Source: a phage
Direction: 5' to 3' (one strand)
Length of the DNA: 64,000 bases
Sequence record: PZ452608.1
A model generated the notes under the pieces. The model did no database searches and was not told the origin of the DNA. It saw only the letters and a program-made list of their open reading frames with translations. The translations under genes were made by a program, and so were the position numbers. Each line of letters opens with the position of its first letter. Position 1 is the stretch's first letter. Shown piece by piece: positions 27,399 to 28,869 of the stretch.

Positions 27399-27476
27399 CC
27401 TCATTAAAAGACCCTCTTAAAGACCTTTTAAAAAGGTAAGTCTCATTTTAATGTAGCTGAGACTAACTACCCATAC
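27399..27476. repeat. Direct repeat copy 1 (58 nt identical core 27419-27476)
   Basis: aaagaccttttaaaaaggtaagtctcattttaatgtagctgagactaactacccatac is identical to 28812-28869; preceded by cctcattaaaagaccctctt. Confidence 0.8.
27430..27467 (-). terminator. Intrinsic terminator on - strand (module hairpin plus U5)
   Basis: On - strand GUUAGUCUCA-loop-UGAGACUUAC followed by CUUUUUAAAAGG; lies about 130 nt downstream of the 27597 stop. Confidence 0.5.
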
Positions 27477-27529
27477 CAGACCCTACCTTACCAAACCAGA
27501 CCTCACCCTACCCCACCATACCGTATACT
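27468..27529. repeat. G-poor CA-rich tract (A2)
   Basis: tacccataccagaccctaccttaccaaaccagacctcaccctaccccaccataccgtatactac. Confidence 0.6.
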
Positions 27530-27569
27530 ACCTCATTAAAAGACCTTGTTTAAAGACCTTTTAATGAGG
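27530..27569. repeat. Perfect 12-bp-stem hairpin (AAAGACC repeat unit 2)
   Basis: CCTCATTAAAAG-accttgtttaaagac-CTTTTAATGAGG; contains two AAAGACC words 13 bp apart. Confidence 0.6.
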
Positions 27570-27588
27570 AGCCTCCGAAGAGGCTACC
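27568..27588 (-). other. GC hairpin with UUCG-type loop immediately 3-prime of the 27597 stop, no U-tract
   Basis: GGAGCCTC-CGAA-GAGGCT on + strand, same hairpin family as the window terminators but followed by CUCAUUAAAAGG on - strand. Confidence 0.45.
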
Positions 27589-27596
27589 TAGTCAAC

Positions 27597-28037
27597 TTAG
27601 AAAGGTTTTCTGCGTTGCTTGTTAATGTTAGCTTTCATAGCAGCTAAATGGTTTTGCTGTTCAATTAGTCGTGAACGTTCTTGGTGGCTAAGTGCCATAG
27701 TATTCACATTCTCAATTGCTTGAGTGGCTTGCTTTAAAGCTCGACCAATCTTACCAGACATTTTGCGTTTTGCAATAGTTGCTTGATGCTTAGGTTCAAC
27801 CACACGATAACCAACACCCATTGAAGCAACCAGATAAATCTTCTCTTCTTTAAGAAGCTTCTCAATAAACTTCTCAAGTCGGTTTAGACGTGTAAGTGCA
27901 TAAGCCTTCATTTCATCTTCGTACTTAACAATGTCACCTTGATAAGTTGGCTTCACAATACCTAAGAAGGTGTCCATCTCAGAATGTGATACAGTGTCAC
28001 CGTAACTAAACTTTGCTGCTAATGCTTTTGTATTCAT
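27597..28037 (-). CDS. Hypothetical protein (cassette gene 2)
   Basis: 146 aa ORF, ATG start, basic C-terminus KANINKQRRKPF; stop 3 nt after cassette gene 1. Confidence 0.5.
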   Translation of the reverse strand: MNTKALAAKFSYGDTVSHSEMDTFLGIVKPTYQGDIVKYEDEMKAYALTRLNRLEKFIEKLLKEEKIYLVASMGVGYRVVEPKHQATIAKRKMSGKIGRALKQATQAIENVNTMALSHQERSRLIEQQNHLAAMKANINKQRRKPF

Positions 28038-28039
28038 AA

Positions 28040-28627
28040 TTAAACGTTACCTTCTGAAATAACTTCTACAGAAAAACGACCAAAGCGTGGACGCCAATCA
28101 CCTACACCACAAAGGTTACCAGCATTTTCCAGAACCATCAAGAGTTCTTCTTTGGTGATTTGCTCTTCATCGAACATCAAACCAAACTCTACAGACCAGT
28201 CACGGAAGATTGGACGGTAGCTCATAACTCGTGCTGTACCAATCTTAACAGACTTAGCATAGATAAAGTCTGGATTCTTCGCAAGTTCTTGTGGGTTTGC
28301 TGGACAATTCTTGATAGTCATTGGGAAGACTACATCTGTCAGCATAATGGCTCGGTCAATTACCTTACCAAGTTTGTTTAGTTTTGCACCAGACTTGATA
28401 CAAGCCTCAATCATCTCACCGTTCATAACAAAACCTAGTTGCTCATCGTAGTAACAAGAAGTTACCAGTTGGCTTTCTGCTAAGAGCGCATAGTCTTCGT
28501 CAGTCTTTTTACGCTTACTGGACAGAGACTTGTGATATTTTGTCAGAGGGTTTAATGGGTCTGACAGCGTATCGTTATGGCTCAGGAAAGGACGAGTACC
28601 AGTGATTTTGATATTTAACAGTTTCAT
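28040..28627 (-). CDS. Hypothetical protein (cassette gene 1)
   Basis: ATG at 28627 with GGAG RBS (track start 28642 is GTG); 195 aa, no recognisable motif. Confidence 0.5.
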
Positions 28628-28719
28628 AGCATTTAGCTCCACACTTTAGTTGATTGTTAAGTTGTTTGTAAAGAACCCTCAACAGAAGACTCTTTAGAAA
28701 CTTGGTAGATTTTTAACGT

Positions 28720-28790
28720 GGCTACTACCATCCACCCATACCGTGCCACACCACACCGGACCGTACCATGCCCAACCCTACTACACCAGA
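28720..28790. repeat. G-poor CA-rich tract (B1)
   Basis: ggctactaccatccacccataccgtgccacaccacaccggaccgtaccatgcccaaccctactacaccagacc; begins with same ggctactNccatcc as tract A1. Confidence 0.6.
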
Positions 28791-28869
28791 CCTTATTAAA
28801 AGACCCTCTCCAAAGACCTTTTAAAAAGGTAAGTCTCATTTTAATGTAGCTGAGACTAACTACCCATAC
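28791..28869. repeat. Direct repeat copy 2 (58 nt identical core 28812-28869)
   Basis: Identical to 27419-27476; preceded by cttattaaaagaccctctcc. Confidence 0.8.
28823..28860 (-). terminator. Intrinsic terminator / attenuator on - strand inside the leader of the cassette
   Basis: Same hairpin plus U5 as 27430-27467, about 200 nt upstream of the 28627 start codon and downstream of the candidate promoter at 28998-29025. Confidence 0.45.

Follow-up and report, generated by a model that had tools for sequence, protein, structure and literature searches.

Both copies of a 58-nt direct repeat in Escherichia phage wV8 are most likely invariant 3′ ends of guide RNAs from a type II VIPR locus

VIPR (Viral Interference Programmable Repeat) has been described with SUSP1 as its model (bioRxiv 10.64898/2026.04.26.720920 and 10.64898/2026.04.26.720927). 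According to these two preprints, the SUSP1 guide RNAs (vrRNAs) contain 9 to 16 YNNGG repeats and an invariant pseudoknot tail, are directed at satellite targets under a 1-nt skip rule, and belong to a locus with vap1 in the operon. The preprints further report expression of ~100-nt vrRNAs, copurification of Vipr, and target repression for SUSP1 and P. fulva, and cryo-EM of a SUSP1 vrRNA on which a 3′ pseudoknot cap and twelve Vipr protomers are resolved (2026.04.26.720920/.720927). VIPR resembles the crRNA complexes of Class 1 CRISPR in that a RAMP polymer with a fold akin to Csm3/Cas7 sits on a guide RNA made up of a variable targeting segment and a structured, conserved end and, according to the VIPR preprint, in that periodic bases are kept out of pairing. 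It differs in having no 23- to 50-nt repeat/spacer array, cas operon, or adaptation genes and, as the preprints describe it, in its 5-nt period with two of five bases read, its gapped code, its phage-encoded nature, and its action by repression. The main text of the VIPR discovery paper makes no mention of wV8, and the 58-nt repeat receives no discussion in the genome papers of Felix O1 and wV8.

The window analyzed here comprises 64,000 nt of phage DNA (PZ452608.1), and the 2.5-kb region of it that was searched (26800-29300) is 100% identical to Escherichia phage wV8 (EU877232/NC_012749) and to three O157 typing phages. An exact-match search confirmed the two perfect copies of AAAGACCTTTTAAAAAGGTAAGTCTCATTTTAATGTAGCTGAGACTAACTACCCATAC that the initial annotation had reported (27419-27476 and 28812-28869, zero mismatches, spacing of 1,393 bp), and exact identity ends at the repeat borders on both sides. 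No third copy with up to 3 mismatches was found in the 64-kb window, where 0 matches were expected by chance. Both copies carry a repeat_region annotation, “DR_4,” in the wV8 GenBank record, and they flank a two-gene cassette, gp95 and gp94, with the downstream copy 121 to 178 nt past the gp94 stop codon, also as first noted. We conclude, with a probability of about 0.93, that a type II VIPR locus of wV8 contains the 58-nt copies as the invariant 3′ ends of two of its vrRNAs. The repeat is therefore real and functional and is already explained by the 2026 preprints. The initial annotation had proposed an intrinsic terminator with attenuation or antitermination control and had offered constraint as a protein or RNA recognition site as an alternative; the headline is not supported, while the alternative is right, as the 58-mer contains the invariant 3′ tail of a Vipr-coated guide RNA.

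The product of gp95/vipr (28040-28627, minus strand; 195 aa from the ATG, in an ORF that reaches a GTG at 28642) is RAMP-like. It is identical to PDB 36pp, “SUSP1 Vipr protein,” at 192 of 195 residues (98.5%, E = 6e-128), and this entry was the sole match in a profile search with the gp95 family. The AF2 model of gp95 (pLDDT 95) has Csm3/Cas7 RAMPs as its best Foldseek matches (E ~4e-5). A Vipr protein is a minimal RAMP with an RRM core, G-loop, and thumb, a description that gp95 fits; the G-loop is conserved across 40 gp95 homologues. Pfam, PADLOC, and NCBIfam returned nothing useful for either protein (for gp95, no match at all), and PHROGs assigned both only to families of unknown function. 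By homology to the second gene of SUSP1, gp94/vap (27597-28037, minus strand; 146 aa) is the accessory gene of the VIPR operon. It is 99 to 100% identical to the second gene of the cassette in 21 loci, SUSP1 (L021) included, and always adjoins vipr. We infer that gp94 is vap1, a name taken from the locus description in the preprint. A search for a solved structural relative of gp94 found none. The link between arrays and vipr extends beyond these phages: of 31 unrelated IMG/VR contigs that carry clustered arrays, 25 have a gp95 homologue 1 to 45 nt upstream on the same strand, and in 27 of 28 clusters the G-rich strand of the array coincides with the upstream ORF's coding strand.

Besides these proteins, the wV8 locus shares with the type II VIPR of SUSP1 its YNNGG repeats, two tail types, a position between ligase and the gp93 homologue, and guides that address one satellite family under the 1-nt skip code. 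Layouts differ, with two vrRNAs upstream and two downstream of the cassette in wV8 and one upstream and three downstream in SUSP1. The guide sequences also differ, wV8 belongs to the genus Felixounavirus, and the gp93 homologues are only ~33% identical. In place of 23- to 50-nt repeats with spacers and cas1/cas2, wV8 has only 5-nt units and a two-gene cassette; the wV8 system works like a Class 1 CRISPR effector but is not a member of that class.

The locus reads, in order, promoter P1, vrRNA A, vrRNA B, vipr, vap, vrRNA C, and vrRNA D, so that each intergenic region of the cassette holds two vrRNAs, each composed of a 5′ hairpin, 11 to 13 YNNGG pentamers, and a conserved tail. All features are on the minus strand. 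P1 (28998-29025) is a sigma-70-type promoter, TTGACA-N16-TATACT, that scores 11/12, bearing out its initial identification, and it occupies the same position in all related loci, including those that lack arrays. P1 would drive vrRNA A and vrRNA B and presumably also vipr-vap. An inverted repeat, TGGTGAGTA...TACTCACCA (28969-29010), overlaps its −10 element; the arm sequences vary in loci L022 to L024, yet their complementarity is kept. Hairpin H1, AUCACUUAAGAGUCUU...GGGUUUUUAAGUGAU (28930-28966), precedes array A and folds at −13.6 kcal/mol (z = −4.7, with 0 of 200 shuffles as stable). The repeat tract of vrRNA A (28864-28928) has 13 units with NN = (AA) GT TC GC GA AT GG AG AT AT GC AA AT. 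The upstream 58-mer (28812-28869) consists of the last unit of this tract, UAUGG; an L-type tail pseudoknot (28863-28832) with UACC after it; and, from the hairpin that comes next, the 5′ arm CCUUUUUAAAAGGUCUUU. That hairpin, H2 (28791-28830), shares the last 19 nt of the 58-mer and precedes the 12-unit tract of vrRNA B (28736-28795; NN = AA CT GT AG TG AT AC CC GT GT AC AT), which ends in an E-type tail (28704-28735; GUGG-AU-GGUAG-UAG-CCAC-GUUAAAAAU-CUACC). The upstream copy was correctly placed within the ~360 nt between P1 and the gp95 start codon, but what had been called a leader consists of two vrRNA genes.

Downstream of the cassette, a G+C-rich hairpin, AGCCUC-UUCG-GAGGCU (27570-27585), lies directly past the vap stop codon and has no U tract after it. 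It is followed by the 17-bp hairpin before array C (27531-27569), which folds at −17.1 kcal/mol (z = −6.45, 0 of 200 shuffles as stable); two of its G·U pairs would be A·C mismatches on the plus strand, and as DNA it is 88% complementary. The repeat tract of vrRNA C (27471-27530; NN = (AG) AC AT GG AG GA CT TT AA AG CT AT) runs into the downstream 58-mer (27419-27476), in which the last unit of vrRNA C is followed by an L-type tail pseudoknot (27470-27439) and then by a 5′ arm that belongs to the next hairpin. This hairpin, the equivalent of H2 before array D, folds at −13.5 kcal/mol. Array D (27334-27398) has 13 units with NN = AG AG TC TG AC GA GT TG CT AA TT TT AT; its GG is degenerate at several units, and the array may be decaying. 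The E-type tail of vrRNA D (27302-27333; AAGG-AU-GGCAG-UAG-CCUU-AUAAAAAAU-CUGCC) shows compensatory differences from tail B in both stems. The 19-bp A+U-rich hairpin and U-rich run that follow (27254-27301; folded jointly with the E stem, −24.9 kcal/mol and z = −4.2) overlap the gp93 promoter P2 (TTGACA-N17-TATTTT) and are likely the end of the vrRNA C-D transcript.

It had been observed that the sequence flanking the repeat is diverged. Identity does stop at the repeat; what was missed is that the flanks are four arrays of 11 to 13 in-phase pentamers (on the minus strand, YNNGG or GGUNN) and that a strong hairpin stands before each of them. Within the 64-kb window, a period-5 signal was found at the VIPR locus only. 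A logo of 84 distinct arrays gave G.75 G.98 T.89 N N, with positions 4 and 5 near-random and positions 1 to 3 partly fixed by the rule used to detect arrays. The four wV8 arrays flank vipr, lie within the 9- to 16-repeat range, and combine a conserved GGY with hypervariable NN, as vrRNAs do. An Rfam scan of 26500-29500 (E ≤ 1) gave no match, and searches with motif strings (GGUNN and similar) found no relevant literature.

The L-type tail has the form GUAG-UU-AGUCUCA-G-CUAC-AUUAAAA-UGAGACU-UACC. Its 48-nt core is identical to that of wV8 in 23 of 37 copies from divergent phages and recurs nearly unchanged in cassette-free phages and between arrays that follow one another on one side of the cassette. 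All 95 tail copies (13 variants) have the H-type pseudoknot fully paired, as scored with a regular expression that fixes some segment shapes and leaves only stem 2a fully free. Substitutions are compensatory among the three tail types, and all others fall in loops. wV8 therefore has an invariant tail of ~40 nt with a hairpin and a pseudoknot, as judged from sequence and covariation. The pseudoknot seen by cryo-EM belongs to SUSP1 vrRNA1, which carries the E-type tail according to our mapping of locus L021, not the L-type tail of the 58-mer. The two 58-mer copies are identical because the segment is under strong purifying selection throughout the subfamily, and the sequence beside them diverges because the programmable guide is there. 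Perfect identity would thus reflect functional constraint on the tail. Recent duplication, which had been suggested from the same identity, is not indicated, as the core recurs unchanged in divergent phages, cassette-free ones included.

The strongest competing explanation is that the 58-mer is an intrinsic terminator, whose upstream copy attenuates or antiterminates the cassette and whose downstream copy ends it. We consider this improbable. The structure on which it was based is present, a minus-strand hairpin (minimum free energy of −12.5 kcal/mol; 7-bp inner stem, 5-bp outer stem, and 12-nt loop) followed directly by C-U5, and it resembles a Rho-independent terminator in placing a hairpin and a short U run between a promoter and a gene. 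Furthermore, SUSP1 vrRNAs are reported in the preprints as discrete ~100-nt species, which implies that 3′ ends form near the tails, and the sequence from a tail to the following array has no promoter-like site, so that some end-forming signal is needed. However, a consensus terminator scan of 26500-29500 found no terminator-like site. An intrinsic terminator has a stable G+C-rich stem, a loop of 3 to 8 nt, and a U tract of at least ~6 to 8 nt; the 58-mer has few G-C pairs, a 3-nt bulge, a long loop, five U, and a stability that departs little from that of shuffled sequences (z = −1.9). Both parts of the proposed signal have other partners. The GUAG of the outer stem would instead pair with the loop CUAC in the pseudoknot, a pairing supported by covariation, and the U5 is the 5′ arm of the hairpin of the next vrRNA. 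The U run is missing after a few tail copies, two of which go straight into a different hairpin and two into other sequence, and the satellite vrRNA relies on a separate canonical terminator past its tail. Transcription must read through both copies, since one has vrRNA B and vipr downstream of it and the other has vrRNA D. An attenuator would combine a leader terminator with a mutually exclusive antiterminator and a sensing element; alternative pairings do exist here (outer stem or pseudoknot, U run or next hairpin), but we saw no sign of regulated termination in the supposed leader. The main text of the VIPR preprints does not state how vrRNA ends are made. The tail may contribute weakly to vrRNA 3′-end formation.

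It is still less probable that the 58-mer is a mere recombination scar, left without function by recent duplication or gene conversion around a mobile two-gene cassette, comparable to T4-type promoter-stem-loop cassettes. Two observations favor a scar: the cassette proteins are 97 to 100% identical in phages whose ligases are 86 to 96% and whose gp93 homologues are 31 to 98% identical, and in silico recombination of the two 58-mers yields a 579-nt product collinear over its full length with cassette-free loci found in nature. A functionless scar would not account for a 48-nt core that is near-invariant where the cassette is absent and between arrays on the same side, for substitutions that avoid both pseudoknot stems, or for the conservation of a related E-type tail on E. 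coli satellites. The copies can serve as recombination substrates as a by-product alongside their function as vrRNA tails.

The TRAP tract of the Bacillus trp leader consists of about 11 (G/U)AG repeats with 2- to 3-nt free spacers, one per subunit, preceded by a 5′ stem-loop. The wV8 arrays share the ~11 short spaced repeats and the preceding stem-loop; they differ in that Vipr forms a helical RAMP filament rather than an 11-mer ring, the spacers encode DNA targets, and nothing ties them to attenuation. We give practically no credence to the (GGUNN)~12 arrays as sites for a TRAP-like ring protein with a role in attenuation, as an R-loop-prone replication origin, or as a Rho rut site on the antisense strand: their 11 to 13 in-phase repeats do recall the 11 triplets of TRAP and lie downstream of a strong promoter, and their transcript is G-rich with a C-rich, G-poor opposite strand, but the adjacent protein is a RAMP, the NN positions hold target information and match real genes under the skip rule, GC skew merely tracks the direction of transcription, and the invariant G2 and U3 read AC on the other strand, whereas Rho prefers YC. 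Chi/RecA-hotspot, primase-site, and G-quadruplex readings were dropped along with these, given that the neighbor is Vipr and the NN code matches real targets, as was a replication origin by GC skew, since the skew only follows gene orientation.

If the 58-nt copies are vrRNA tails, Vipr would polymerize along each vrRNA and leave the NN dinucleotides free to read double-stranded DNA with one base skipped between pairs (NNxNNx...), and the bound guide RNP would repress transcription of its target. The four wV8 guides would be aimed at an E. coli satellite phage, a rival of wV8. Read with the 1-nt skip, this satellite is matched at 10/11 dinucleotides by guide A, 8/11 by B, and 10/12 each by C and D. 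The targets of A and B are in the satellite tape-measure gene, that of C is in a non-coding region, and that of D is in the serine-recombinase gene. By chance, about 1e-5 would be expected analytically per locus for C and D, and 0.03 for the core of B. Order-shuffled versions of C and D reach at most 8. The case for guide B rests on its run of eight consecutive matching 5′ units because shuffled versions of B equal the observed core score. Clade-wide, 11 of 62 guides matched at 85% or more, three of them perfectly, compared with 0 of 62 reversed controls. The guides thus match competing mobile elements under a 1-nt skip, with shuffled and reversed controls negative except for the core of B. 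Among the seven satellites compared, none was a perfect match for any wV8 guide. The exact 10-unit patterns of B and C were absent from IMG/VR, as were that of C from GTDB genomes and that of B from JGI metagenomes. A match of the L004 guide on L007 was rejected since it fell on another array and tail, and 3-nt-skip matches were rejected as trivial self-matches.

The satellite is a ~12-kb element integrated in E. coli chromosomes, and its own vrRNA has the canonical terminator mentioned above. The E-type tail with the preceding GGTATGG (39 nt) occurs in 153 of 5,426 E. coli genomes, on satellites. A BLAST search of complete E. coli genomes gave no match to the L-type tail, and satellites were located by the E-type tail only.

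Several Felixounaviruses that lack vipr (Felix O1, L027, Ro111lw/L006, and L033) retain a promoter-driven solo vrRNA with an intact tail. The NN code of this orphan guide matches the vipr gene of VIPR-carrying relatives at 9 of 9 dinucleotides, at two different sites on opposite strands. The skipped base is the codon wobble position, and variants of the orphan guide follow synonymous vipr alleles. On their real targets, 0- and 2-nt skips stay at noise for the orphan guides. A tentative explanation, which we hold with less than even confidence, is a guide-only “anti-VIPR” in which the orphan RNA of a coinfecting phage would load the Vipr of its rival and aim it at vipr-vap; related to this, the 58-nt tails of wV8 would be recombination substrates for loss and gain of the cassette. 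Phages carry solitary CRISPR repeats, mini-arrays, and RNA anti-CRISPRs. The orphan guides alone resemble these, as guide-type RNAs without an effector gene that could exploit or subvert an effector in trans, and differ from them in that the Felix O1 orphan is a complete guide and has a code that fits the effector gene itself. Both vrRNAs aimed at other VIPR systems, in the P. fulva clade, and satellites with vrRNAs of their own are mentioned in the VIPR preprint (2026.04.26.720920/.720927), and the anti-VIPR idea may therefore be partly contained in the supplementary data of the preprint. The 9/9 match of the Felix O1-type orphan guide to vipr and the prediction of natural cassette-free loci by recombination of the 58-mers are possibly new.

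For wV8, what is established here is the anatomy of the sequence, the identity of the proteins, conservation, covariation, and the matches to targets, while expression of ~100-nt vrRNAs, RNP formation, the skip rule, and repression come from the preprints, which demonstrate them for SUSP1. By analogy, the wV8 locus would behave like that of SUSP1. Little is added here as discovery, since publications of April to June 2026 already covered the system, the anatomy of its RNAs, and the class of its targets. The repeat would be a guide RNA's constant “handle” within a newly described system of RNA-guided DNA recognition that has been proposed to predate CRISPR. In Felix O1-like therapeutic and typing phages, gp95, gp94, and the “long intergenic regions” can now be labeled correctly and their targets read. 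For wV8, an O157:H7 biocontrol phage, an arms race is predicted with a satellite that about 3% of complete E. coli genomes carry, and the side observations suggest routes by which phages lose, gain, and counter VIPR systems.

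The 58-nt sequence at 27419-27476 and 28812-28869 is present as exactly two exact copies, and identity stops at both of its ends. No third copy with three or fewer mismatches was found in the 64-kb window, where none is expected by chance. The observation made in the initial annotation was therefore confirmed: a perfect repeat with diverged flanks, a minus-strand hairpin followed by a C-U5 run, and an upstream minus-strand promoter, P1 (TTGACA-N16-TATACT, 28998-29025; 11/12). A search with 2.5 kb of the window gave 100% identity to Escherichia phage wV8 (Felixounavirus) and to three O157 typing phages. 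Both copies are already entered as repeat_region DR_4 in the GenBank record of wV8, but the papers on wV8 and Felix O1 do not discuss them.

The initial annotation missed a set of pentamer arrays and hairpins. On the minus (coding) strand, the two intergenic regions, upstream of gp95 (28040-28627) and downstream of gp94 (27597-28037), each contain two blocks of 11 to 13 pentamers in strict 5-nt phase, with the register GGUNN or, alternatively, YNNGG. These are arrays A (28864-28928) and B (28736-28795) upstream and arrays C (27471-27530) and D (27334-27398) downstream. Nowhere else in the window is there a period-5 signal, and every block is preceded by a long hairpin. The one before array C, of 17 bp (-17.1 kcal/mol, z = -6.5), contains two G.U pairs that become mismatches when read on the other strand; this strong fold and its G.U pairs point to an RNA on the minus strand. 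Related loci have 0 to 6 arrays of 9 to 20 pentamers (mode, 12). The logo of 84 distinct arrays is G.75 G.98 T.89 at positions 1 to 3, which the detection rule partly sets, and near random at positions 4 and 5.

IMG/VR was scanned with (GGTNN)6GGT, which matched >120 contigs, 31 of them with clusters of at least two arrays. In 27/28 clusters, the G-rich strand was also the coding strand for the upstream ORF, and one family of ~190-aa proteins was encoded 1 to 45 nt upstream on the same strand in 25/31. This family, with >520 unannotated relatives, includes wV8 gp95 and has three conserved motifs (SKRKKTDED, RxRP, and a third beginning with G). Its profile had a single match in the PDB, 36pp, "SUSP1 Vipr protein," to which gp95 is identical at 192/195 positions. 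An independent AlphaFold model of gp95 (pLDDT 95) resembles the Csm3/Cas7 RAMPs of type III CRISPR complexes. The longest gp95 ORF starts at a GTG (28642) and has 200 aa; GenBank and the solved SUSP1 protein use the ATG at 28627 (195 aa). Six unrelated IMG/VR contigs (L054 2216-3406, L044 on the minus strand, L043, L086, L132, and L039), one of them 388 kb, carry 7 to 13 tandem vrRNA-like arrays immediately 3' of a Vipr homologue, separated by very short conserved spacers such as GGAATGGTTTAATGAATTTAATTT or GGCTAATGGG, an architecture unlike the wV8 type.

The VIPR system was already reported in 2026, together with its RNA anatomy and targets, in papers whose main text does not name wV8. As reported there, VIPR pairs a minimal RAMP encoded by the phage (Vipr) with an accessory gene (vap), here gp95 and gp94. 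The guide, or vrRNA, has 9 to 16 YNNGG repeats and ends in an invariant pseudoknot tail of ~40 nt. One Vipr protomer binds each repeat, twelve being resolved by cryo-EM, and the pseudoknot caps the 3' end. The NN dinucleotides read double-stranded DNA with one base skipped between pairs, which leads to transcriptional repression, and in the SUSP1 clade the natural targets sit on a satellite phage (bioRxiv 10.64898/2026.04.26.720920, 10.64898/2026.04.26.720927).

In the YNNGG register, the 58-mer resolves into a G plus the last unit, UAUGG; an L-type tail, GUAG-UU-AGUCUCA-G-CUAC-AUUAAAA-UGAGACU-UACC; and CUUUUUAAAAGGUCUUU, the 5' arm of the hairpin that begins the following vrRNA. The clade has three tail types, each compatible with the same H-type pseudoknot: stem 2 GUAG:CUAC with stem 1 AGUCUCA:UGAGACU in type L, GUGG:CCAC with GGUAG:CUACC in the type E tail of array B, and AAGG:CCUU with GGCAG:CUGCC in that of array D. 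Both stems are fully paired in 95/95 tail copies (13 sequence variants), a search in which the pattern preset some segment shapes and left only the 5' strand of stem 2 free; the remaining substitutions all fall in loops. Within the 58-mer, a 48-nt core is almost invariant, with 23/37 copies in divergent phages having the wV8 sequence, and in cassette-free phages it joins array 1 to array 2. The identity of the two wV8 copies thus reflects a family-wide constraint, and the recent duplication proposed earlier is not needed to explain it. We conclude that the 58-mer is real and functional and comprises the vrRNA 3' tail, a pseudoknot handle, and the start of the next vrRNA.

The hairpin and U run, with one copy in the cassette leader, had been read as an intrinsic terminator conferring attenuation or antitermination control. 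Several results argue against this reading. A consensus scan called no terminator in the region, and the hairpin, whose loop is 12 nt long, is barely more stable than shuffled sequences. The pseudoknot uses part of the terminator-stem sequence, and the U run base-pairs within the following vrRNA hairpin and is missing after a few tail copies, of which two run straight into a different hairpin and two into other sequence. Furthermore, vrRNA B, vipr, and vrRNA D require transcription past both copies, and a satellite vrRNA has a separate canonical terminator 3' of its own tail. The vrRNA-tail reading therefore replaces that of a leader terminator, although the tail might still contribute weakly to 3'-end formation; the main text of the VIPR papers does not state how vrRNA ends form.

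Other elements surround the locus. An inverted repeat at 28969-29010 (TGGTGAGTA...TACTCACCA) overlaps the P1 -10 element, and in L022 to L024, phages without arrays, its arms differ in sequence and stay complementary; it could be a terminator of the ligase transcript or an operator. Between ligase and P1, a 48-aa hydrophobic minus-strand ORF (MFSTVILFILVVFVLSYVASKLL..., 29032-29178) is found in some relatives and missing in others, which explains part of the length variation of "empty" sites. A G+C-rich UUCG-loop hairpin without a U tract directly follows the vap stop codon (27570-27585), and the next vrRNA hairpin begins exactly 32 nt past this codon in all VIPR+ loci. A 19-bp A+U-rich hairpin with a U-rich run lies 3' of vrRNA D (27254-27301); its loop contains the gp93 promoter -35, so that this terminator-like element overlaps a promoter.

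We compared 35 related loci: the window, 28 from IMG/VR, and 6 from a phage collection, one of these 6 being a duplicate of the window. The gp95-gp94 cassette is found in 21 and missing from 14. Its proteins are 97 to 100% identical between loci, compared with 86 to 96% for the flanking ligase and 31 to 98% for the gp93 homologue. The SUSP1 locus (L021) carries a single upstream array and three downstream ones, in agreement with the published description. Recombination between the two wV8 58-mers, which would remove vrRNA B, vipr, vap, and vrRNA C, was performed in silico, and the 579-nt product is collinear over its full length with the cassette-free locus of UAB_Phi87 (84.6% identity). Natural two-array, cassette-free intergenic regions occur in L005, L012, L018, L032, and L034, with collinearity shown for, e.g., UAB_Phi87. 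This collinearity makes the 58-mers plausible substrates for cassette loss or gain, which fits the near-identity of the cassette across divergent backbones. Two-array phages without vipr still hold satellite-directed guides.

Exact 10-unit target patterns gave no match for guides B and C in IMG/VR, C in GTDB genomes, or B in JGI metagenomes. No complete E. coli genome matched the L-type tail; the E-type tail is found in 153/5426, carried by a ~12-kb satellite-like element integrated in a DUF72 gene adjoining yecN-cmoA (e.g., L155 9395-22241 from E. coli EC12, L157, and L159 to L161). In L156 and L158, the tail lies elsewhere, near tonB/yciI, in a degraded element. The ~12-kb element encodes a serine recombinase, baseplate and tape-measure proteins, and an HNH endonuclease, with no annotated vipr. 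Its 2.6-kb noncoding stretch has its own promoter (TTGACG-N17-TATAAT), 5' hairpin, vrRNA, E-type tail, and canonical terminator.

Under the one-base-skip rule, guide A matches the satellite tape-measure gene at 10/11 units, as does guide B at 8/11 (eight consecutive 5' units); guide C matches the noncoding region at 10/12. Several units of vrRNA D have AG or TG for GG, yet it matches at 10/12 in the recombinase gene; this guide may be in decay or have lower affinity. Analytic chance expectations per locus are ~1e-5 for C and 4e-6 for D, and 0.03 for the 10-unit core of B at 7/10. Order-shuffled guides reached a maximum of 8, under the observed C and D scores but not under that of B's core; because shuffles reach this core score, B is supported by its run of eight consecutive matching units. 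Clade-wide, 11/62 guides matched at ≥85%, three perfectly, versus 0/62 reversed controls. As judged from these predicted matches, the published target class, a satellite, is reproduced for the wV8 guides.

A profile search of the whole 86 kb of Felix O1 (L003) found no Vipr homologue (best E = 2.4 versus 3.4e-83 for the wV8 control). This phage has exactly one array (57758-57817, minus strand; L003 2353-2634), a promoter-driven vrRNA. The Felix O1, L027, and L006 guides all match 9/9 dinucleotides across the vipr codons T-K-E-E-L-L-M-V-L, the skipped base falling on the wobble position, and CT/TT guide variants follow synonymous Leu codons among vipr alleles. The L033 guide matches at 9/9 on the opposite strand, close to the vipr 5' end. 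In the window, these sites lie at ~28128-28156 and ~28563-28591, on opposite strands of the minus-strand gene. Shuffled guides scored at most 7/9, and skips of 0 and 2 nt scored 5 to 6. These matches raise the possibility that the single promoter-driven vrRNA retained by these Vipr-less Felixounaviruses is a guide-only anti-VIPR. The VIPR system, of which the 58-mer is a part, is of high general interest.
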